Of a DNA stretch of 64,000 nucleotides, positions 2,316 to 25,566 are shown one piece after another (the stretch's first letter is position 1; every line of letters begins with the position of its first letter). Origin of the DNA: Mosigvirus mar005p1; the sequence record OZ035759.1; one strand, given 5' to 3'. A program made the position numbers and the translations under genes. Under the pieces are notes generated by a model. The model did not search any database and was not told the DNA's origin. It worked only from the letters and a program-made list of their open reading frames with translations.

Positions 2316-2609
2316 TCAACTGTAACGATAACATTCGTTAGCTTTACGTTTGGCTTCAGTATGAGAAGTATTATAATCATACTCTTCTTTACTGTAAACA
2401 TCTTTTTTCAACTTACGAACTTCTTTGCGGAGTTGTCGATTCATTTCATTCTTGACTTCAGAATCAACGCCTTTCATACGTTTCCATTTATCTGAGCGGA
2501 AAATGTTTTCAACCATGTCTTTGTGGCTAACACCGTCAGGAGCTTTACGCTTACCAAAATAGTCGTAATCGCGAACTTTCAAATCTTTACGACGATATGT
2601 TTTACCCAT
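2316..2609 (-). CDS. hypothetical basic protein (97 aa)
   Basis: Track start is TTG; first ATG (MGKTYRRKDL) at 2607-2609 with GAGG SD; Lys/Arg-rich. Confidence 0.5.
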   Translation of the reverse strand: MGKTYRRKDLKVRDYDYFGKRKAPDGVSHKDMVENIFRSDKWKRMKGVDSEVKNEMNRQLRKEVRKLKKDVYSKEEYDYNTSHTEAKRKANECYRYS

Positions 2610-2865: not shown

Positions 2866-3044
2866 AGCTTAATTTCCTTCGCAATTGAACAGAAGATACC
2901 ACGGTCACAAAGCATTTCGCCAATTTCTGGATATTTGATTGAACGATACCAAACATCCAGGCTTGAAACTCTGGTTATCTGTACTGCATTACCGTTGACA
3001 GAATAGTACTGATCAACCTTAATTTCTTTATCTTCAATTGTCAT
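2862..3044 (-). CDS. hypothetical protein (60 aa)
   Basis: Start moved to ATG at 3042-3044 (MTIEDKEIK) with GAGGAAAATAAA SD; early promoter at 3072-3100 lies inside the longer track ORF. Confidence 0.45.
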   Translation of the reverse strand: MTIEDKEIKVDQYYSVNGNAVQITRVSSLDVWYRSIKYPEIGEMLCDRGIFCSIAKEIKL

Positions 3045-3071
3045 TTTATTTTCCTCTATAGTAGATGGTTT

Positions 3072-3100
3072 AATCTTAACACATCTATTGAGGATGTAAA
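3072..3100 (-). promoter_or_regulatory. early promoter (GTTTAC-N17-TAAGAT)
   Basis: Minus-strand consensus upstream of the ATG at 3044. Confidence 0.5.
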
Positions 3101-3209
3101 CTGTTTTATGAAAATATTTTTGATTTGAGAGGGGCACAAGGAGATAGTGAAGTGAAGATTCCAATGGATTATATTAGAAATGAGATAAAGAAGACCAGGC
3201 GGCACCTGG

Positions 3210-3533
3210 TCAATCTTCTATGATATCAGAGTCATATCCTAATGAAATCAATGACTTTTTAAACTCTGCAATATTCTTTTGTTTCTTATCATTTAAAAAT
3301 ATGACAGGATAACGAATATTAAGTGAAGTGAATCCTGCACGTTTAGCAAGAGATACGATTAAAGGACGGTCATATTCAATCTTACCATTATTAGTGAGGA
3401 CTTTATAAAATGTATAAGGAGCATTGAGCTCCTTTAAAAGTTTTGTAACAGTATAACATCCTGGACAACGTCCAACTTCTTCAGGGATGCCATAAATTTC
3501 AATCTTGTTCTTTAAGTTCGAGTTTTGTTCCAC
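3210..3533 (-). CDS. glutaredoxin/thioredoxin-fold protein (NrdH-like), CPGC active site
   Basis: CxxC motif in IYGIPEEVGRCPGCY context; no in-frame ATG upstream of motif, so start probably GTG at 3531-3533; start uncertain. Confidence 0.6.
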   Translation of the reverse strand: MEQNSNLKNKIEIYGIPEEVGRCPGCYTVTKLLKELNAPYTFYKVLTNNGKIEYDRPLIVSLAKRAGFTSLNIRYPVIFLNDKKQKNIAEFKKSLISLGYDSDIIED

Positions 3534-3816
3534 GAGAAATAATTCCTTGGTAAGCCCAATAAGGAGGATTAACAGAATCCTCACCAGAGTTTTCTTCAGG
3601 AAAATAAACCTGGATAACGAAGCCGGATTCATCAAAGGTAAAATAAACCGTAGGCAGTTCACCTAACAAATCGGCATGAGCGTTGATTTCTTCGAGGTCT
3701 TGTTCACGTCCAGCCCAGAAGCTTGGGTTCAGACTACATTCATAGAAATAATAGTCATTACCGAACATATCAAAACCATTCCAACTCTCTACTACATACC
3801 GCTCAAAACTAATCAT
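3499..3816 (-). CDS. hypothetical protein (105 aa)
   Basis: ORF; acidic; no motif. Confidence 0.5.
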   Translation of the reverse strand: MISFERYVVESWNGFDMFGNDYYFYECSLNPSFWAGREQDLEEINAHADLLGELPTVYFTFDESGFVIQVYFPEENSGEDSVNPPYWAYQGIISRGTKLELKEQD

Positions 3817-8988: not shown

Positions 8989-9938
8989 TATAACACCTCA
9001 ATGGCATTTCGTAAACCGTCCGCTTTCGCATTCAGAGCTTTTAACGATTTAGTTTGTTCTTTAATCTGGGCTTCGACTTCTTTCAGACGAGATTTGAGGT
9101 ACTCACGTTCTTCGCTCAAGTTGTCAACTTTTTCTACTTTAGGTTCTTTAATAGTCTTAAGTTTATACTCGTTAGGGTTCTTCAACTTAATTCGGGTACG
9201 AGAACTATATAACATTGAACCGTTATCTTCGGATTCGTCGAACGTTTCAACAACATCCATAGTCTCTAACAATGTAATAAGTTTATAAGACAACGAACGA
9301 ATAGTTTTGTTGTGCTTATTAATTTCTTCGGCTTTCATGGTGCCGAGATTACGTGAGTAGTAATAAGGAACCTGGATATCAATTGATAATGATGCGTTAC
9401 CGTTACCAGTTGGTTTGAATACTGCAGTAACCCAATCTTTAACATGAACTTTATTTGTACGATCATCGCCGCCTGTGAATAATTTACGTGAATGTTTAAA
9501 AAGCATATTCACTTGGTTATTGAATTCACAAGCAAATTTATCAGCAAATTTAGTTTCAGGAATGATAGCTAACCAATCAGCCAAATGAGTCTTTTTAACA
9601 TCATTAACAATAGTGAATTCAACCAAATCGGTTTTAGTTGTCACAGATTTAATAAAGCTCGGCTTCATAAAGTTTTTAATGTTATCGCGAGCTACAGTAG
9701 AAGATAATAAACGAGAACGTTTGAACCATTGAAGCAACGTCCCTAACGAATGAGAATACGCATTTTGAGTATCTTTACAGATATGATTTTCTTGGCCTAT
9801 GTATGTACAAAAATCGCGAAGAATACCACTTACTACATCTCGGTGTGGAACATCAAATCCTAGTGCACCAACAGCGCGCTGGGCATGAACGTTAGCGATA
9901 AGACCGGCAAAGTATTCAATGTAATGTGAACGTGTCAT
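8988..9938 (-). CDS. hypothetical protein (316 aa) with C-terminal coiled coil; tandem trio member A
   Basis: ATG with GAGAGGAAAA SD; own early promoter; heptad-rich C-terminus. Confidence 0.65.
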   Translation of the reverse strand: MTRSHYIEYFAGLIANVHAQRAVGALGFDVPHRDVVSGILRDFCTYIGQENHICKDTQNAYSHSLGTLLQWFKRSRLLSSTVARDNIKNFMKPSFIKSVTTKTDLVEFTIVNDVKKTHLADWLAIIPETKFADKFACEFNNQVNMLFKHSRKLFTGGDDRTNKVHVKDWVTAVFKPTGNGNASLSIDIQVPYYYSRNLGTMKAEEINKHNKTIRSLSYKLITLLETMDVVETFDESEDNGSMLYSSRTRIKLKNPNEYKLKTIKEPKVEKVDNLSEEREYLKSRLKEVEAQIKEQTKSLKALNAKADGLRNAIEVL

Positions 9939-9966
9939 AATATTTTCCTCTCGTTAAGATAGATTC

Positions 9967-9996
9967 ATTATACTCCAACCATCCTTGGTTGTAAAC
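9967..9996 (-). promoter_or_regulatory. early promoter (GTTTAC-N18-TATAAT) for tandem-trio gene A
   Basis: Minus strand GTTTACAACCAAGGATGGTTGGAGTATAAT. Confidence 0.55.
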
Positions 9997-10000
9997 TATT

Positions 10001-10960
10001 TTATGATTTTAACGCATTCATTGCGTTAAAAAGTTTAGAATACTGCAACTGGAGATTCGTTACAACACTTTGAGCATCACGAAGCTTAGCTTGTGCTTTG
10101 TCAAGTTCAACGGACAGTTGGTCTACAGTAGCCTTGATTTGATTGTAATGGTAATCTTCGGCCGGAAGAAGGTCATTAGAAACATTTAGTTTTACTGCAG
10201 ACAGTTTGCACACATTTGGCAAACCTTTAAACATTGATTTACCCGAAGTAGAATAAGCACTTAGGACTTCGGCTTGTTCAATTGGGGTCCCAGTAAGCGA
10301 TGCTTCAAACAATGCATTTTCCTTTTTAAGATTTTGATAGTATTCAGAGTCTTTGTGCCACCATGGCGCAGGAACCTTTTTACCAATAGATACACGAGCC
10401 TGGATAGCGATATGGCCCTTATTCTTGATAATGTCAATAATATTAAGCTCACGAGAATAAATCGCTTTAATCTGGTGGATATTATCACCTAAAACTTCCA
10501 ACGCTTGGTGGAATACACGAGCAACGTTATCATTCTTAGGTTTATACGTAAGAGTGAACTCGTTCTCACTGATAACCATGATTTCTAACTTATCGTAAGT
10601 ATATTTCAAATGTTTCATGTTAATTGCTTGAGGACGAATACGAGAAGCAATGGCCATCAGATTGTTAAGGTTATTCCGGAACTGCTTAGCGAAATATTGT
10701 CCTTCACCACCAATACAAAAATTACGAAGTTTCTGTTTGGCTAATAAACGGCTGAACTCACCATTTTTAATGAACTCTTTAACGGGTGTGTTAGTAACGC
10801 ATTCAAATTGAGTAAACTTACGAGAAGTAATCCCATAATATGAACAGACTTCCTCAATCTCTTCAGGAGTCTTTACAGGCATACGGATAGGATTAGGTCC
10901 TGGAGTATATGCGTTCGAGGTAAATTCTTTGATAAGTTCTCTACGTGTAATAAAAGCCAT
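10001..10960 (-). CDS. hypothetical protein (319 aa) with C-terminal coiled coil; tandem trio member B
   Basis: ATG; preceded by near-identical promoter sequence to member A; shares MA(I/V)A(S/A)R(I/L) motif with member C. Confidence 0.65.
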   Translation of the reverse strand: MAFITRRELIKEFTSNAYTPGPNPIRMPVKTPEEIEEVCSYYGITSRKFTQFECVTNTPVKEFIKNGEFSRLLAKQKLRNFCIGGEGQYFAKQFRNNLNNLMAIASRIRPQAINMKHLKYTYDKLEIMVISENEFTLTYKPKNDNVARVFHQALEVLGDNIHQIKAIYSRELNIIDIIKNKGHIAIQARVSIGKKVPAPWWHKDSEYYQNLKKENALFEASLTGTPIEQAEVLSAYSTSGKSMFKGLPNVCKLSAVKLNVSNDLLPAEDYHYNQIKATVDQLSVELDKAQAKLRDAQSVVTNLQLQYSKLFNAMNALKS

Positions 10961-10986
10961 TTTATATTCCTCATGTTGAAAAATTT

Positions 10987-11016
10987 ATTATACTCCAACC
11001 ATCCTTGGTTGTACAT
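10987..11016 (-). promoter_or_regulatory. early promoter (ATGTAC-N18-TATAAT) for tandem-trio gene B
   Basis: About 27 bp identical to the 9967-9996 element. Confidence 0.5.
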
Positions 11017-12011
11017 CATTCCTTAAGAAGTTTTACTACTTGAATAAGATTAGCTCGTTCTGTTTTATTTTTACCGTTTAAGCCTGCTAATCGTGAGATT
11101 TCATCGTCAGTCTGTTGAATAGTTACATTAAGTTCGTTAATCAAAGCTTCAAAGTATTTGATTTGCTCAGCATGTTTTGATTCAAATTTCTGAACCGGAA
11201 TAACGTCTTGGTTTAGTTCGTCAATAAGGTCTTTAAGAGCATCTTCTTGGTTGATATCATATTCAACTTCTTTTATTTCTTCAACGAGCTCGTCTTTATA
11301 TCTAACGTCTTTTAGTCCTGGAGCTGGTCCTGAAATCTCTTCTTTAAGAGTACAAACATACCCAATACGGTATCCAATGCCGTCTCGCTTGATATCAACT
11401 TCGTCGATAAATCCACAATGTTTAAGACCAGAGCCGATTAGGTTAAAATATCCTTGACGTCGTCCTTCAAACGTTACACGAACTACTAAGACAGTTTTGC
11501 CACCGACCTTTTGAAGCTCACATTTATAAAAGTCAGTTGAACCTGAATAACGTGGATGAGTTTTAAAGTTCATCTGACGATCTAGGCCCATTTGTAAACG
11601 TGCTGCTACGGCCATAAAACGTGTTTGGTTCTCGTTAAGATGAGCAACAATCCATTTCAAAGGCATTTTACACTGTTCACGACCGAACAAATCAGTACGT
11701 CCTAGATTACGCAGGATGTTGTTAGAGTTAATCATCGACAGAACGTTAAGTTTATTCAGCGCGCTGAAGATTCCATCAGCCATTGATTTTCCATAACCTT
11801 TACACGCTTTAATAAGTGCTCGCGGCAGATTAGTATAGATTTCAGACGGCATATGAAAATCAAATTTACTAACCAGTAATTGATGAACTTGGATAGCAAT
11901 TTGTTCATAATTAAGTGCTCTGCGATCGTTATGGTCTTTAAACCACACTTTAATCTGTGAAGCACATAAACCGTTAATTTCATGTTTTACCGCATCAGAT
12001 GTAATGCTCAT
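11016..12011 (-). CDS. hypothetical protein (331 aa) with C-terminal coiled coil; tandem trio member C
   Basis: ATG; possible MotA-box middle promoter upstream (CGCTTTA-N12-TATAAT). Confidence 0.65.
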   Translation of the reverse strand: MSITSDAVKHEINGLCASQIKVWFKDHNDRRALNYEQIAIQVHQLLVSKFDFHMPSEIYTNLPRALIKACKGYGKSMADGIFSALNKLNVLSMINSNNILRNLGRTDLFGREQCKMPLKWIVAHLNENQTRFMAVAARLQMGLDRQMNFKTHPRYSGSTDFYKCELQKVGGKTVLVVRVTFEGRRQGYFNLIGSGLKHCGFIDEVDIKRDGIGYRIGYVCTLKEEISGPAPGLKDVRYKDELVEEIKEVEYDINQEDALKDLIDELNQDVIPVQKFESKHAEQIKYFEALINELNVTIQQTDDEISRLAGLNGKNKTERANLIQVVKLLKE

Positions 12012-13084: not shown

Positions 13085-14086
13085 TTATTTCAGTAAAGTT
13101 ACTTCAGAGATTTCCTCCCAACCATCTTTATCAGTTGAAATAAAATCTGCTACATAAAGAGCCGTACGTAATGATACATTGCGAAGACGAGATACGTTAG
13201 CCTTCATCCAGGACAATGCTTTATACGTTTCTGCATCCGTCAGACCACGTTTCTGCATCATGTCAGTAGATAATATTACATCTTCAACTCGAACCATAAT
13301 CTCTTCATTAGAGTGTACTCCAAGGTCGAGATACACTGAACGAGATACTAAAGCTTGAAGGTGTGGAGCAAGTTTCGAACCCCGTTCTAACTCTTTATCG
13401 ATATCAACGTTTGTAATGAAAACGATAGTACCTTCAAACTCAAATTCTTTATCAATACCCTTATCATCGAGATAAGATGACGCAGTGCTCCAACAAACTT
13501 TGCGTTTATCTCCGGTATCTAATGCTGCTTTAAGAAGGTTCAAGATGTCCATATCTGAGAATACGTCAACGTCGTCGATTAAGAGAACGCTGTCTGCATC
13601 ACGGTTGAGCCAAAGTTGTTCGTAAAGGCCAATACCAGAGATTTTACCATTAATGCTTTTGTATTTGATGAAACCATTATCATTAGCATTATTAAGTGCT
13701 CTATCCAGAGAATACGTCTTACCAATACCGGCTGCACCTGAAATAATGAGTGAACGAATTTTGCCATCGATAATGCCATTCGTCATCATGTTCATTACTT
13801 TAAAGCGTTTGTTGATACGAGTTTTCATATCTTCAGTGCTTTCAACAACTGCAACTGGTGATGTCTCAACTCCTTCCATTACGATGTCTGATTTGAAGAC
13901 CCATACTCCACGTTCAGAACCATCAATCATAACGAAAATTTTACCGTCACCTAAGTGGGAGCATTCAGGATTAAGCTTTGCCGGGAACCAGGTCTTTGTG
14001 GCAACATAAGAACCAGAGATTTCGTTATTACGATAGATACCTTTTTTGATTTGAACGTTGAACATTTTATTCTCCAATTTACTCAT
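13085..14086 (-). CDS. P-loop ATPase (AAA+-like), 333 aa
   Basis: Walker A GAAGIGKT and Walker B VLLIDDVD. Confidence 0.7.
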   Translation of the reverse strand: MSKLENKMFNVQIKKGIYRNNEISGSYVATKTWFPAKLNPECSHLGDGKIFVMIDGSERGVWVFKSDIVMEGVETSPVAVVESTEDMKTRINKRFKVMNMMTNGIIDGKIRSLIISGAAGIGKTYSLDRALNNANDNGFIKYKSINGKISGIGLYEQLWLNRDADSVLLIDDVDVFSDMDILNLLKAALDTGDKRKVCWSTASSYLDDKGIDKEFEFEGTIVFITNVDIDKELERGSKLAPHLQALVSRSVYLDLGVHSNEEIMVRVEDVILSTDMMQKRGLTDAETYKALSWMKANVSRLRNVSLRTALYVADFISTDKDGWEEISEVTLLK

Positions 14087-14140
14087 TTCGTTTCGATAGG
14101 TCTATAATAACATATCCTAAAAGCATGTACACTACTTTTT

Positions 14141-14180
14141 AAAAATATTTTAACCCCCTAAAGGGACCCGAAGGTCCCCA
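14141..14180 (-). terminator. hairpin (GGGACC-CGAA-GGTCCC) downstream of secreted-protein gene
   Basis: 6-bp GC stem with CGAA loop plus adjacent CCC/GGG pairing; U-tract interrupted. Confidence 0.4.
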
Positions 14181-14183
14181 CAT

Positions 14184-14465
14184 TTACTTATCGCACTTAG
14201 CAACATAATTAGGCATATCACAGAATACAGAGCGAGTAACTACTCGGCCCTTTGACCATGCTTCAGTTGCTTGTCCGGCCGTGCTATTAATATAGCTTGA
14301 TTTGATATTCTCAATACCCTGAGAATGTGATGCATTTACCGAACCATTGGAAGGCCCAGAAGACTGGTTACCACCAGCTCCTGCACTACCGCCGCCTGGA
14401 CCTGTGGTAGCACCAACAGAGAATGCCATCATTACTGCGAATAAACCAATTACTAATTTTTTCAT
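14184..14465 (-). CDS. secreted Gly/Ser-rich small protein (93 aa)
   Basis: Signal peptide MKKLVIGLFAVMMAFSVGA, then GPGGGSAGAGGNQSSGPSNGS, two C-terminal Cys; late-type TATAAATA upstream; hairpin downstream. Confidence 0.6.
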   Translation of the reverse strand: MKKLVIGLFAVMMAFSVGATTGPGGGSAGAGGNQSSGPSNGSVNASHSQGIENIKSSYINSTAGQATEAWSKGRVVTRSVFCDMPNYVAKCDK

Positions 14466-14496
14466 ATTTACCTCAAGTTAAGGGTTATTTATCTAT

Positions 14497-15486
14497 TTAT
14501 TTATAGTAAGAATTATGATTTTCGAGATAGACTTGCTCAAGGAAATCATCCCAGAAACTCATATCTACTTTTTGTTGCATACCGTTCTTAGCGGCTTGTT
14601 CTGACGCATGTTCAACTTGGTCAACGATATCTTCTAGGAATTCTTGTACAGTTTTAAACGTATGTTTACCAAGCTTAACATCGAGAATAAATGGAGCATC
14701 CTGAAGTGGGTAAACCAGGTCGCCGGTTTTGTAAATTTCCAATAATTGAAGTCCACCACGACATGCATGACTCAATGCTTTCCAGTCAATACCTTCGTTA
14801 GCTTCTGCCTTACGAGCACGTTCACCGTAGTTCTCTTCCAGTTTAACCAGGATGGCATTGAACTCTTTATTGGTTAACGTGTCTTGGAATTTACGGTCTA
14901 ACAGATTATAGAATGTTTGCTTACCTGTTTTCTCGTTTTCGGTTTCAACCCACGAAGCAAATTCACCTACAGGCAGAACATTCTTCATATGTGATAAACG
15001 AATTACTGCACCATTATCAAAGTATTGTCCCCATTCATTAGAACGTTTAAGGGCTTGTCGAAGAACAGCCAGTCGAGAGCCCTTGACACCGTATTTGGAA
15101 GCTTGCTTACGGACATACCCTAAATAAGATTTCATGTTAGTGGTATAGAAACGAGACCTGTTATCTTGAATATACTTCCACACGACAGGCAAATCAGATT
15201 TAACTACTAGACTTGGTGGAGTGTGAAGCATATCTAATGCGACGGTTTCACCATCCGCAGCTAGTTTAAAGAAATATTTGAGACTATACAACTCATGGTC
15301 CACGTCGTCTTTTGTGTTCTTAGAAGATGTGTTATTCGTGTTCTTGCTCATGTGTTCTTTAACGTTACCGGTCAAGATATCACGAGCATGAGGGACATAA
15401 ATTTCTTTAAAATCGACGTCAGATTCAGGAGTAGACGTTCCATAAAGGTGGCTACCAAAGTAAGTTTTCACAATTGTTTTCATCAT
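14497..15486 (-). CDS. predicted nucleotidyltransferase (Pol-beta superfamily motif), 329 aa
   Basis: N-terminal GSHLYGTSTPESDVDF matches the hG[GS]x(9-13)DhD nucleotidyltransferase signature; family not resolvable by eye. Confidence 0.6.
   Translation of the reverse strand: MMKTIVKTYFGSHLYGTSTPESDVDFKEIYVPHARDILTGNVKEHMSKNTNNTSSKNTKDDVDHELYSLKYFFKLAADGETVALDMLHTPPSLVVKSDLPVVWKYIQDNRSRFYTTNMKSYLGYVRKQASKYGVKGSRLAVLRQALKRSNEWGQYFDNGAVIRLSHMKNVLPVGEFASWVETENEKTGKQTFYNLLDRKFQDTLTNKEFNAILVKLEENYGERARKAEANEGIDWKALSHACRGGLQLLEIYKTGDLVYPLQDAPFILDVKLGKHTFKTVQEFLEDIVDQVEHASEQAAKNGMQQKVDMSFWDDFLEQVYLENHNSYYK
14498..14505 (-). promoter_or_regulatory. late-type promoter (TATAAATA) upstream of secreted Gly/Ser-rich protein gene
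   Basis: Exact consensus on minus strand about 33 nt upstream of the ATG at 14465. Confidence 0.5.
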
Positions 15487-17826: not shown

Positions 17827-18408
17827 TTATAACAACCCTGTCAAATCGTTCCAATGCTTCCGGCATAATGACACATATCTATCGGTATCACCAATTTCAA
17901 TTTGACTGCCATCTGTAATTGGAAGTCCATCTTCCGTGACTCTAGCTACCATTGTGGCCTTTTTACCGCAATGACAGACACCTTTAAGTTCAACAAGCTT
18001 ATCGGCAATAGCCATTAATGCTTGAGAACCTTCAAATAGATTACCTTTAAAATCTGTTCGTAGTCCATATGCCATTACCGGCACATTGTATACGTCAACA
18101 ATACGACTAAGTTGATACACCTTTTCAGTAGTTAAGAACTGAGCTTCATCAACAAATACACAGTGAATATCCTTTTGTGCTGCAGCCCATTTATAGAATT
18201 CAAAGATATCCATGTCTTTTGTAATTATATTGGCATCCTGACGAATACCAATACGAGAGACTATTTCACCTTTTGAATCGCGAGTATCAATAGCCGGTTT
18301 AAGAACTAATACACCCATGCCACGTTCTTTATAGTTATGTGCGGCAGTAAGTAATGAAGCGGACTTACCAGCGTTCATAGCGGCATAGGTAAAAATTAAA
18401 CTAGCCAT
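17827..18408 (-). CDS. tk: thymidine kinase
   Basis: 193 aa; P-loop AMNAGKS; Zn-ribbon cysteines (CHCGKKAT..LCRKHW). Confidence 0.9.
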   Translation of the reverse strand: MASLIFTYAAMNAGKSASLLTAAHNYKERGMGVLVLKPAIDTRDSKGEIVSRIGIRQDANIITKDMDIFEFYKWAAAQKDIHCVFVDEAQFLTTEKVYQLSRIVDVYNVPVMAYGLRTDFKGNLFEGSQALMAIADKLVELKGVCHCGKKATMVARVTEDGLPITDGSQIEIGDTDRYVSLCRKHWNDLTGLL

Positions 18409-18417
18409 AAGAGTCCT

Positions 18418-18600
18418 TTATAGTGAATTCACATAGTCAATGAGTTCTTGTTCTTTCCTGTCAAATGATTCCATCAATGCGTGATATTCTTCATCTGTTA
18501 AAGGAGCATATTCATCATACGCATTGGTGGCCGCTTGCTCATCCAATAGGTCGTGGATAAGTTCGAACAGTTTAGTTTTCTCTTCTTTAGTCAATTTCAT
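18418..18600 (-). CDS. hypothetical acidic protein (60 aa)
   Basis: ORF immediately downstream of tk. Confidence 0.45.
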   Translation of the reverse strand: MKLTKEEKTKLFELIHDLLDEQAATNAYDEYAPLTDEEYHALMESFDRKEQELIDYVNSL

Positions 18601-19091
18601 TTAGGTTCCCAATCAACAATCACAATTTCTAGTTTAGTGGAATACGTATCTAAAATCTCTTCGATGACATCCCAGTTTCCACCACCAATACCTGCACCAA
18701 TTCTTGGCATATAAATTACAGGCTTTGTTATCTTATTCTTTCCGAATTCATTTAATTCTATTATACAATTCATTAAAGCAGAGTACTCAAAATTAGGTCC
18801 CGGTTCAAACTGCGTATAAAGATTAAAGCAATAAGCTTTATGGGTCTTAAAATATTTTTCATAAACCGAATAAGTTCCGAGTTTAGACTCATCTCCGAAT
18901 TCGGTTTGAAGTTTATCGGCTTCCAGAATTTTTGGATAAGCCTTTGCTAATTGTCCTGCTACACCGGCGCCCATTGTATGAAAACAATTACACCCATGAG
19001 CAATATTATTACCTTTAGAAAACAGGGCGACAATATCGCCCTTGATATAGTTTTTAATCACTTGCTGCAAGTCCTCTATTATAAGAGTCAA
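18597..19091 (-). CDS. macrodomain protein (predicted ADP-ribose binding/hydrolase)
   Basis: Motifs NNIAHGCNCFHTMGAGVAG and PRIGAGIGGG typical of macro domains; track start is TTG, true start uncertain. Confidence 0.65.
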   Translation of the reverse strand: MTLIIEDLQQVIKNYIKGDIVALFSKGNNIAHGCNCFHTMGAGVAGQLAKAYPKILEADKLQTEFGDESKLGTYSVYEKYFKTHKAYCFNLYTQFEPGPNFEYSALMNCIIELNEFGKNKITKPVIYMPRIGAGIGGGNWDVIEEILDTYSTKLEIVIVDWEPK

Positions 19092-19401
19092 CTAGACGGT
19101 CCACCATAGAATTGCATGCTGCCTTATCTTTAGGTTCCGCCACCGAGCATTCTAATATTTGCCATTTTTTATAGTATCTTTTAATTAAGGTAGACGCCTT
19201 GAACCTACTAGACGCCCCATCTTTTTCTCCGTCTTTATATGCGTATAACAATTTTTGTGAAAAATCTACTTTACACTCTTGACTTTTACCACAATAATCA
19301 GACGCCGTTCTGTTTGTATACTCCGTTACATCAGTATATGTAGTATTAGCAAGAGCGTTAAATGAAACCAAGCCAACTATTAAAGCCAACATTTTGGTCA
19401 T
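19054..19401 (-). CDS. secreted Cys-containing protein (115 aa)
   Basis: Signal peptide MTKMLALIVGLVSFNALA; four Cys in mature part. Confidence 0.55.
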   Translation of the reverse strand: MTKMLALIVGLVSFNALANTTYTDVTEYTNRTASDYCGKSQECKVDFSQKLLYAYKDGEKDGASSRFKASTLIKRYYKKWQILECSVAEPKDKAACNSMVDRLVDSYNRGLAASD

Positions 19402-19940
19402 TCTTTTATTTCCAGTAGTTTATTTGATTTAAGGTAATTAGCCTTTTCTAGGACTTCAGAAGCATATTTACTTCCAGCACTTGTCTTCCATCCCGCATTA
19501 TATGAGGATATAGCTTTTCTTATATCCCCGTTATGTATATTTAACCAATAAGAAAATTCGATATAAGCCCATCTGGCTGAATTAGACCGCTTAGATAGCA
19601 TTTTCTTAATTTGGGCATCAGTCATATTATAACCAAGCTGGTTAATTCTTGCCCTCATTGTTGGTAGATAGTTTTGGAACATTCCATACGCATGGTGACC
19701 TTTCTTATCTTTAAGATTAACACCGGCAGATGATTCTTGCCATAGTATTGCGGCCATTATGTATCCAAGTCCTTTCTTATGCATATTTTCATGCGTTTTA
19801 AATTTTCCGTCCTTAGAAAACTGTTCCCCAAACTGATAAGCATAATTCAAGTTATCGAGTTGGACATTACTAAAAGTATGCTCGGAGCTATGTGCTGATA
19901 ATGAAAGAGCAAATAGACCAGCGAGTAGTGCTTTTCTCAT
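19398..19940 (-). CDS. periplasmic lytic transglycosylase (SLT domain)
   Basis: Signal peptide MRKALLAGLFALSLSAHS; SLT motifs WQESSAG, YGMFQ, SYNAGW. Confidence 0.7.
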   Translation of the reverse strand: MRKALLAGLFALSLSAHSSEHTFSNVQLDNLNYAYQFGEQFSKDGKFKTHENMHKKGLGYIMAAILWQESSAGVNLKDKKGHHAYGMFQNYLPTMRARINQLGYNMTDAQIKKMLSKRSNSARWAYIEFSYWLNIHNGDIRKAISSYNAGWKTSAGSKYASEVLEKANYLKSNKLLEIKE

Positions 19941-24881: not shown

Positions 24882-25340
24882 TTATAGGAGGGTAGTGAGC
24901 ACCTTATATAATGATTTACCCATTACATATTCCCATTGAGAAGGTTTAATTAAAGCGAATGCATCAAATTCAGGAATCTGTCGTCCGTCTGGGAATGTAT
25001 GATAGGAATTACAAACACTGTTTCTGAATTGCTCGTGCTCTACAGGGATGGTATATAGGAACAGATGAATATTCTTATTATCTGAGTAATGATGTTCACC
25101 TAGGTCTTTCAGGAAGGCAGGGTCATATTGTGTAAACCCAGTTTCTTCTTCGCATTCACGAATAGCGGCTTCAATAGGAGATTCACCGGGCTCGACACGT
25201 CCTTTAGGAATATCCCACCGATGAGCTAAAGAACCTTTAGGACGAGAACCAGTTACACGCCCCATGAATAATTCTTTATCTTCGGTAAGGAAAATAATAC
25301 CGGCTGATAGTTCTTTCACTTTATTTTTCTTACTCATCAT
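24882..25340 (-). CDS. nudE: Nudix hydrolase
   Basis: Nudix box GRVEPGESPIEAAIRECEEETGF; immediately follows e as in T4. Confidence 0.8.
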   Translation of the reverse strand: MMSKKNKVKELSAGIIFLTEDKELFMGRVTGSRPKGSLAHRWDIPKGRVEPGESPIEAAIRECEEETGFTQYDPAFLKDLGEHHYSDNKNIHLFLYTIPVEHEQFRNSVCNSYHTFPDGRQIPEFDAFALIKPSQWEYVMGKSLYKVLTTLL

Positions 25341-25566
25341 CTCGGCCCCATGATTTGGCCATTAATTCGGACATAAATTCTTCAATGCGCGTTTCTTTAG
25401 ATGGACTTTCACTATTAGAGACCGCAAGTTTGTAATCTGCAATAGGACAGAACATATCAAGGTCCATATTAAGATCGTCTTTGATTTTTTCTTCTGACAC
25501 ATCTTTATCGTATGTGTACAGATAACTATCACATGATTCTGATTTAATGTAAATTGCTATACTCAT
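25330..25566 (-). CDS. hypothetical acidic protein (78 aa)
   Basis: ATG at 25564-25566 (MSIAIYIKS). Confidence 0.45.
   Translation of the reverse strand: MSIAIYIKSESCDSYLYTYDKDVSEEKIKDDLNMDLDMFCPIADYKLAVSNSESPSKETRIEEFMSELMAKSWGRDDE

Follow-up and report, generated by a model that had tools for sequence, protein, structure and literature searches.

A small gene close to the thymidine kinase gene tk of Mosigvirus mar005p1 encodes a protein with the Gly-rich loops of a macrodomain. This raises two questions: which ADP-ribosylated molecule such a protein would act on in the infected cell, and which residues of its predicted active site could carry out the reaction. The window analyzed here is the whole 64,000-nt stretch of DNA, which comes from a T4-like Mosigvirus with ~99% DNA identity to phages Bas46 and moha; the 2.2 kb surrounding the macrodomain gene has 98.5–98.8% identity to many Escherichia phages. 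Along the minus strand, the genes run regB, vs.1, vs, the macrodomain gene, a 60-aa DUF7438 gene, tk, rI.1, and rI (Table 1), with a weak SLT-like match for vs.1. The initial annotation placed the macrodomain gene downstream of tk, but the two are minus-strand genes, so that in transcription the macrodomain gene is located two genes upstream of tk. The directly upstream neighbor, which had been labeled a secreted-protein gene, is vs by its phrog_1256 match; the N-terminus of its product does look like a signal peptide. Where Mosigvirus has the single DUF7438 gene, T4 has three small genes (tk.3, tk.2, and tk.1). The order vs–tk.4–…–tk is common to T4, moha, Bas46, AugustSocin, phiR1-RT, a Klebsiella Jiaodavirus, and ECD7, and is kept in Tequatrovirus, Mosigvirus, Tegunavirus, Jiaodavirus, and Krischvirus; it is absent from one Acinetobacter phage examined.

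Table 1. Features of the macrodomain locus and its neighbors, in coordinates of the 64,000-nt window.
Feature	Coordinates	Strand	Remarks
vs (valyl-tRNA synthetase modifier)	19054..19401	-	phrog_1256 (1.8e-35) and annotation in relatives; directly upstream
Putative Shine-Dalgarno sequence GAGGA	19072..19076	-	in the terminal part of vs, 10 nt ahead of the GTG; read from sequence
GTG start codon of the macrodomain gene	19059..19061	-	aligned with the ATG of T4 tk.4
Macrodomain CDS (T4 tk.4/adfM orthologue)	18597..19061	-	154 aa, GTG start; ORF and homology
GC-rich 8-bp hairpin AGGGCGAU-AUU-GUCGCCCU, then GUUUUCU	19024..19042	-	terminator-like scan and RNA folds; codons 7–13 of the macrodomain gene
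Loop 1 region NNIAHGCNCFHTMGAGVAG	18954..19010	-	conserved H22, G23, C24, N25, C26, M30, G31, G33, A35
N80-L-Y82-T83-Q84 motif	18810..18824	-	Q84 at the site of DarG K80/TARG1 K84
Loop 2 PRIGAGIGGG, diphosphate-binding Gly-rich loop	18678..18707	-	G126 where TARG1 has D125
ATGA stop/start overlap	18597..18600	-	macrodomain gene TGA (18597..18599) over the ATG of the next gene (18598..18600)
60-aa DUF7438 gene	18418..18600	-	Pfam DUF7438 (6e-17), phrog_653; between the macrodomain gene and tk
tk, thymidine kinase	17827..18408	-	Pfam TK (7e-57), phrog_592; downstream landmark

The ORF list of the window contains a 164-codon ORF running from TTG to TGA on the minus strand (18597..19091). The initial annotation described this 164-aa ORF as having a non-ATG start that overlaps the upstream gene; the ORF exists, and both the non-ATG start and the overlap are correct, but the length of the gene and the extent of the overlap need revision. 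As judged by homology, the true product is the 154-aa protein starting from the GTG at 19061..19059. In alignment this GTG matches the ATG of T4 tk.4 exactly, the N-terminus MI-x-x-YIKGD is present in every homologue retrieved, and the gene is annotated as a 465-nt CDS with a GTG start in the near-identical phages moha and Bas46 'ChristianSchoenbein' (in Bas46 with locus coordinates 18597..19061, the same as in the window). The TTG start at 19091 was ruled out because the homologues and T4 begin at the aligned GTG or ATG; the 10 additional codons at the front of the 164-aa ORF simply belong to the last part of the vs reading region. The GTG is located 5 nt ahead of the vs TAA stop codon, and with this start the overlap with vs is 8 nt (GTGATTAA) rather than 38 nt. 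The minus-strand sequence around the start is ...TATAATAGAGGACTTGCAGCAAGTGATTAAAAACTATATCAAGGGC in this Mosigvirus and ...TATAATCGAGGATTGAGTACTAGATGATTGTAAAATATATCAAGGGC in T4, and the GAGGA, which is also found in T4 at the same aligned place, is likely the Shine-Dalgarno sequence of the gene. As the start and stop codons overlap the neighboring genes, translation of the macrodomain gene is probably coupled to that of both neighbors.

The macrodomain assignment made in the initial annotation is upheld by profile matches, by the predicted fold, and by conservation of both Gly-rich loops; the two motifs quoted in that annotation are present, as loop 1 and loop 2 (Table 1). The Pfam Macro profile (PF01661) matches 115 residues at profile positions 2–117 of 118, with 28.1 bits against a cut-off of 22, and phrog_335 matches the protein at E = 9e-67. 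Alignment by hhalign gives a probability of 98.9% for four DarG-type macrodomains and of 98.4% for TARG1. In the AlphaFold2 model, which was built on 87 homologues (pLDDT 96.1, pTM 0.91), the protein has the three-layer α/β/α macro fold. A Foldseek search of the PDB with this model yielded 145 matches at E <= 1e-3, and the top 50 are macrodomains, save a few designed serine hydrolases (OSH55 series). The family is large: tblastn finds relatives of the protein in 2,800 records of phages with hosts in many genera, and 1.84 billion cluster representatives searched with a profile yield 18,656 matches at E <= 1e-3, of which 1,264 reach E <= 1e-30, the top 150 being mostly proteins of about 150–170 aa.

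The rankings by Foldseek and by the family profile place the protein in the TARG1/ALC1-like class, about equidistant from all characterized subfamilies. The best Foldseek matches, each with a probability of 1.0, are TARG1 (1.3e-10), Poa1p (TMq 0.81, the highest query TM-score), BT1257, and DarG; for DarG, the matches are to the macrodomains from T. aquaticus and M. tuberculosis, at E of about 5e-8 with TM 0.75–0.77. When the PDB is searched with the family profile (hmmsearch), the order is BT1257 (5e-18), TARG1 (9e-17), SCO6735 (4e-15), Mtb DarG (7e-14), and Poa1p (1e-13). Viral MacroD-type domains are lower-ranked (Foldseek E of about 1e-6, profile 3e-4). The MacroD/YmdB motifs are N-x6-GG[VLI]-D and G-[VIA]-[YF]-G (PMC8120803), whereas the Mosigvirus protein reads N25-x5-G-A-G-V-A35 and G124-I-G126-G, in which the MacroD Asp and the aromatic residue are absent. 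By sequence, BT1257 of Bacteroides thetaiotaomicron (PDB 2FG1/2AFC) is the nearest solved relative. BT1257 is likewise a stand-alone protein (~155 aa) and has an N-x-x-x-Q motif (NMIGQ vs. NLYTQ) and a PRIGxG[IL]xGG-W loop, but it is bacterial and uncharacterized, has about 25–30% identity, and carries HICND instead of HGCNC in loop 1. No specific classification of the T4 macrodomain was found in the survey of Iyer et al. (2022; PMC9503650).

The function of the protein is indicated by T4. Among the T4 tk.x ORFs, with which the initial annotation had proposed a comparison, the counterpart in the same position is tk.4. T4 Tk.4 is 83% identical over residues 11–163 of the 164-aa ORF (153 aa), which is essentially the whole 154-aa protein, and has every family-invariant residue in common with it. 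The T4 gene likewise occurs in the interval from vs to tk, in the same orientation, with the same start position overlapping vs. The T4 protein differs in having 155 aa, an ATG start, and the C-terminus ...DWEPLL, where the Mosigvirus protein ends in ...DWEPK. The macrodomain gene is almost certainly the Mosigvirus orthologue of T4 tk.4 (adfM).

In a study using HIDEN-SEQ, tk.4 was the sole significant hit when a T4 transposon library was grown on a DarTG2-expressing host, and a clean tk.4 knock-out sensitized T4 to DarTG2; the gene was accordingly named adfM (anti-DarT factor Macrodomain), and enzymatic removal of ADP-ribose from DNA was stated by the authors to 'seem likely' (bioRxiv 10.1101/2025.11.20.689424). 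This result fits the earlier finding that T4 without adfA and adfN is still resistant to DarTG2, for which a further factor had been predicted (PMC11825919). DarT2 targets thymidine in single-stranded DNA, and replication of the modified DNA is blocked (PMC11825919). The Tk.4 protein of T2 has been seen by proteomics in infected cells (10.64898/2026.06.19.733364). The suggestion that the macrodomain counters host ADP-ribosylation-based immunity is thus borne out in the T4 orthologue, from which the phenotype itself comes, and by orthology an anti-DarTG2 role is very likely in Mosigvirus. Nothing was found in support of the accompanying suggestion of a partner for the phage's own ADP-ribosyltransferases. 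The gene itself is already known, as a 'macro domain protein' in many records, and the function of its T4 orthologue was assigned in 2025.

The macrodomain of the antitoxin DarG (T. aquaticus 5M31/5M3E, M. tuberculosis 5M3I) has the same fold and class and opposes the toxin DarT2, and DarG models are the sole matches of the protein in NCBIfam and PADLOC, over their macro part. Membership of DarG was nevertheless rejected on score, domain content, the catalytic Lys, and the lack of a darT gene nearby. The NCBIfam DarG model NF048014 reaches 32.4 bits against a 250-bit cut-off, with profile positions 4–148 of 338 matched. DarG carries a C-terminal DarT-interacting domain (PMC11825919), whereas the 154-aa protein is a macrodomain throughout. 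DarG has the signature T-K-G-G, in which K80 is catalytic and its mutation inactivates the protein (PMC8120803), whereas the Mosigvirus protein has Q84. A tblastn search of the window with one P. aeruginosa DarT2 found no DarT, and the neighbors of the gene are vs and the DUF7438 gene.

The bacterial homologues were assessed in the best 80 loci of 376 bacterial genome matches, which belong to Ruegeria, Shimia, Desulfobacter, Verrucomicrobia, Calothrix, Vibrio, and others. The 25 commonest Pfam families among the 133 ORFs adjoining these loci are housekeeping or miscellaneous, with two NADAR; DarT is not among the 25, and tblastn with one P. aeruginosa DarT2 found nothing in the 80 loci, both tests being of limited sensitivity. 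Within that sensitivity, the bacterial members of the clade are not DarT-linked antitoxins, and they provide no guilt-by-association link to DarT. An orphan-antitoxin origin was rejected on these two tests, and the lack of darT beside the bacterial homologues argues against a recent capture of DarG.

The residues of the predicted active site were compared in 87 aligned homologues with 37–96% identity. C26, G33, A35, D49, G62, N80, Y82, Q84, P119, I121, G122, and G124 are invariant, and H22, G23, N25, M30, G31, L61, T83, G88, and W130 are nearly so (H22 in 85/87, N25 in 86/87, and Q84 in 87/87). The Gly-rich loops G31-x-G33 and P119-x-I-G122-x-G124-I-x-G-G are invariant or nearly invariant throughout. 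No Lys is invariant among the 87 homologues; position 60 is always Lys or Arg. In three independent profile alignments (two by hhalign, and the hmmsearch against the PDB), Q84 stands opposite K80 of DarG and K84 of TARG1, for which a sequence identical to PDB 2LGR was used. In profile alignments, TARG1 D125 is replaced by Gly or Ala in the family (G126 in the Mosigvirus protein). The K84/D125 pair of TARG1/OARD1 (TK-G-G-D) corresponds to Q84/G126, and the protein lacks the mark of that subfamily. A MAFFT alignment of seven distant macrodomains, which put Tyr82 opposite the catalytic Lys, and a single-sequence phmmer alignment, which shifted BT1257, were both discarded in favor of the three concordant profile alignments. 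Y-x-Q is present in all 261 relatives retrieved; 256 have N-x-Y-[TS]-Q, and 5 have close variants.

The initial annotation had proposed a check of the catalytic residues: H22 and N25 of loop 1 are conserved, the Lys of DarG and TARG1 is Gln, and the Asp of TARG1 is Gly. As read from these alignments, the feature newly recognized here is the invariant Gln of N-x-Y-T-Q at the place where DarG and TARG1 carry the catalytic Lys. This Gln rules out the Lys chemistry of DarG and TARG1 for the Tk.4 family, and hydrolysis by the family, if it occurs, must be Lys-independent. The missing Lys does not imply inactivity, because SCO6735, a member of the same branch, is without the catalytic pair, yet removes mono-ADP-ribose from protein (PMC8120803). 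From family conservation, the candidate catalytic residues are H22, N25, D49, and Q84.

A biochemical precedent is provided by PhiKZ gp104, which has independently been named AdfM. It strips DarT2-made ADP-ribose from an oligonucleotide in vitro, and the gp104 N23A mutant has reduced activity (Cell Rep 2026, PMC13309987), which shows that a lone macrodomain suffices. Like the Mosigvirus protein, gp104, which counters DarTG2, is a stand-alone phage macrodomain of similar size and has the loop-1 Asn and the Gly-rich loops; N25 of the Mosigvirus protein is located in a segment that aligns with gp104 N23. However, gp104 is a close relative of DarG with the catalytic Lys, whereas the Mosigvirus protein has Gln at the same site. 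In the gp104 translation, the Lys of FPTK is present and the match to Mtb DarG (5m3i) has E = 9e-25, whereas the Mosigvirus protein matches DarG at 1e-3 to 5e-3 in a single-sequence search, and BLASTP between gp104 and the Mosigvirus protein gives one 23-residue match only. On this sequence evidence, T4-type AdfM and PhiKZ AdfM are two non-orthologous proteins from different macrodomain lineages that go by one name, and because of the difference in lineage, the biochemical proof for gp104 is not simply transferable to the Tk.4 family, the shared loop-1 Asn excepted. In the T4-like phages themselves, AdfN (gp30.3), an orphan enzyme of the ADP-ribosylglycohydrolase type, follows the same strategy of reversing DarT damage; it differs in having the unrelated NADAR fold, in acting on the guanosine-linked ADP-ribose of DarT1, and in having no action against DarTG2 (PMC11825919).

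This analysis establishes that the gene is an orthologue of tk.4, that its product has a macrodomain fold, and that the signature of ADP-ribose binding is intact. Taken as a whole, it is probable that the gene is an adfM orthologue encoding a stand-alone 154-aa macrodomain that serves in counter-defense by hydrolysis of ADP-ribosyl-thymidine. The protein would be made from the regB–tk block. Host DarTG2 would release the DarT2 toxin, thymidines in the single-stranded DNA of the phage would become ADP-ribosylated, and DNA replication would be blocked. The macrodomain would then grip the ADP-ribose on the modified thymidines via its two Gly-rich loops, and most likely the bond between ADP-ribose and thymidine would be hydrolyzed, restoring normal DNA, by a Lys-independent site formed from H22, N25, D49, and Q84. 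Direct hydrolysis of ADP-ribosyl-thymidine by the Tk.4 family is, as a step of its own, rather more plausible than not.

Poa1p suggests a different substrate. The Mosigvirus protein could be a small-molecule hydrolase of the Poa1p type (ADP-ribose-1''-phosphate phosphatase or O-acetyl-ADP-ribose deacetylase) that tidies up NAD-derived metabolites, and its effect on DarTG2 would then be indirect. Besides the highest query TM-score, Poa1p has the H-x-C-N-C loop in common with the protein (HSCNC vs. HGCNC in the phmmer alignment; the loop His is mutated in PDB 6LFS, H23A), and the label 'phosphatase' is found in PHROG and in many genome records. That label, however, is an annotation transfer and not a test, and in Poa1p, for which ADP-ribose-1''-phosphate phosphatase activity is described, the residue corresponding to Q84 is Ser. 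The only known genetic phenotype of the T4 orthologue is specific to DarTG2, the product of which is ADP-ribosylated DNA. T4 is not known to have a pathway for producing ADP-ribose-1''-phosphate, which also counts against a Poa1p-like role, and such a role is considered unlikely.

It is quite improbable, too, that the protein removes ADP-ribose from protein or RNA instead of DNA, after modification by the Alt, ModA, or ModB enzymes of the phage or by other ADP-ribosyltransferase defenses of the host, with DarTG2 being met by one of several activities. T4-like phages do encode ADP-ribosyltransferases of their own, and TARG1 and SCO6735 of the same class act on protein-linked ADP-ribose, SCO6735 without the Lys/Asp pair, but tk.4 is not known to be linked to the targets of Alt or Mod. 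In the screens described, tk.4 scored with DarTG2 only (10.1101/2025.11.20.689424), and CmdTAC (an mRNA ADP-ribosyltransferase) is reported to give robust defense against T-even phages that presumably carry tk.4 (PMC11618068). The absence of both the catalytic Lys of DarG/TARG1 and the Asp of TARG1 would suit a non-catalytic 'reader' of ADP-ribose, or a direct inhibitor, that binds DarT2, NAD+, or modified DNA, and non-hydrolytic reader macrodomains have been described, PARP9 MD2 among them. Yet the conservation over hundreds of clusters of the polar residues near the predicted active site, strictly invariant D49, N80, Y82, and Q84 together with H22 and N25, is more enzyme-like, and the protein is without the second, DarT2-interacting domain of DarG. 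Binding to modified DNA alone, moreover, should not restore replication. A reader or inhibitor therefore seems a very doubtful explanation.

The main research value of the Tk.4 family lies in its catalytic site: the T4-type protein is without the Lys on which DarG, TARG1, and PhiKZ AdfM rely, and either there is a new macrodomain route to cleave ADP-ribosyl-thymidine, or protection differs from what the preprint assumes. Tentatively, the Tk.4 family may constitute a DNA (thymidine) ADP-ribosylglycohydrolase class of its own that works independently of the Lys and originated from stand-alone cellular macrodomains and not from a captured DarG. If this is true, anti-DarT2 activity arose in phages on two or more occasions, T4 Tk.4 and PhiKZ gp104 belonging to different macrodomain lineages, and the many stand-alone homologues in bacteria might also repair ADP-ribosylated DNA. 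The protein would be another case of the T-even orphan ADP-ribose erasers directed against DarT toxins, with AdfN acting on guanosine and AdfM on thymidine. For annotation, the gene is best named adfM (tk.4-like macrodomain, anti-DarTG2 factor), with the GTG start at 19061, rather than 'phosphatase' or 'hypothetical protein'.

A sigma-70 scan gave 11 sites where 11.8 were expected, with none usable for the macrodomain gene, and the MotA-box pattern was found 4 times against 1.5 expected, with none close to the gene. The terminator-like hairpin inside the coding region (Table 1) has no counterpart in phiR1-RT, a Klebsiella phage, or an Acinetobacter phage; it is retained with changes in Krischvirus ECD7 and is unchanged in T4 and AugustSocin.

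The hairpin within the macrodomain gene occupies codons 7–13, the start codon lying 20 nt earlier. It is unchanged in T4 and in the comparison phage AugustSocin, even though the AugustSocin macrodomain protein shows only 58% identity. Krischvirus ECD7 retains the hairpin, in a version that has U-A in place of one U·G pair and whose loop differs. The hairpin is missing from phiR1-RT, a Klebsiella Jiaodavirus and an Acinetobacter phage. Possible roles for this element are those of an attenuator or of an RNA-stability element; alternatively, it may be the relic of a recombination junction.

Coordinates of features within and around the macrodomain gene
Feature	Coordinates	Strand	Remarks
Hairpin in macrodomain gene	19024..19042	minus	GC-rich, 8 bp, then U-rich run; flagged terminator-like
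T4 counterpart of hairpin	T4 locus 2519..2539
DUF7438 gene	18418..18600	minus	60 aa
T4 tk.3, tk.2, tk.1	T4 locus 2965..3544
vs	19054..19401	minus	valyl-tRNA synthetase modifier; phrog_1256
vs.1 homologue	19398..19940	minus	180 aa; phrog_600
NudE Nudix hydrolase gene	about 25082..25540	as macrodomain gene	about 6 kb from macrodomain gene; co-linear Bas46 annotation
Four hypothetical genes	about 9236..11208 and 13336..15421		about 320 aa each; two adjacent pairs; Bas46 annotation

On the side toward tk, the DUF7438 gene is the sole small gene between the macrodomain gene and tk in the window, whereas T4 has three small genes at the same place and AugustSocin has four. This interval is a hot spot for the turnover of small genes.

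Upstream, the vs product begins with MTKMLALIVGLVSFNALANTTY, which looks like a cleavable signal peptide. Such a start is odd, given that the reputed target of the protein is a cytoplasmic synthetase. In minimal medium, vs is reportedly the most depleted T4 gene (HIDEN-SEQ preprint; 10.1101/2025.11.20.689424). The N-terminus of the vs.1 homologue is also signal-like, and the match of this homologue to the SLT lytic transglycosylase domain, at 19.2 bits, stays below the 21.3-bit cut-off. In some records it is wrongly labelled 'endoribonuclease'.

NudE substrates reportedly include ADP-ribose, among others (PMC9503650), and one may speculate that NudE could in principle clear ADP-ribose freed by the macrodomain. 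At the 80 best loci of 376 bacterial matches, the ORFs adjoining Tk.4-type macrodomain genes encode an AbiEii-type AAA_21 domain in 5 of 133 cases and a NADAR domain in two of the 133; NADAR is the other ADP-ribosyl-DNA eraser fold, besides the macrodomain.

The name AdfM has been coined twice, independently, for T4 Tk.4 (10.1101/2025.11.20.689424) and for PhiKZ gp104 (PMC13309987). These phage macrodomains are non-orthologous, and the shared name therefore invites annotation mix-ups. Elsewhere in the window, the four hypothetical genes may be paralogues of one another.
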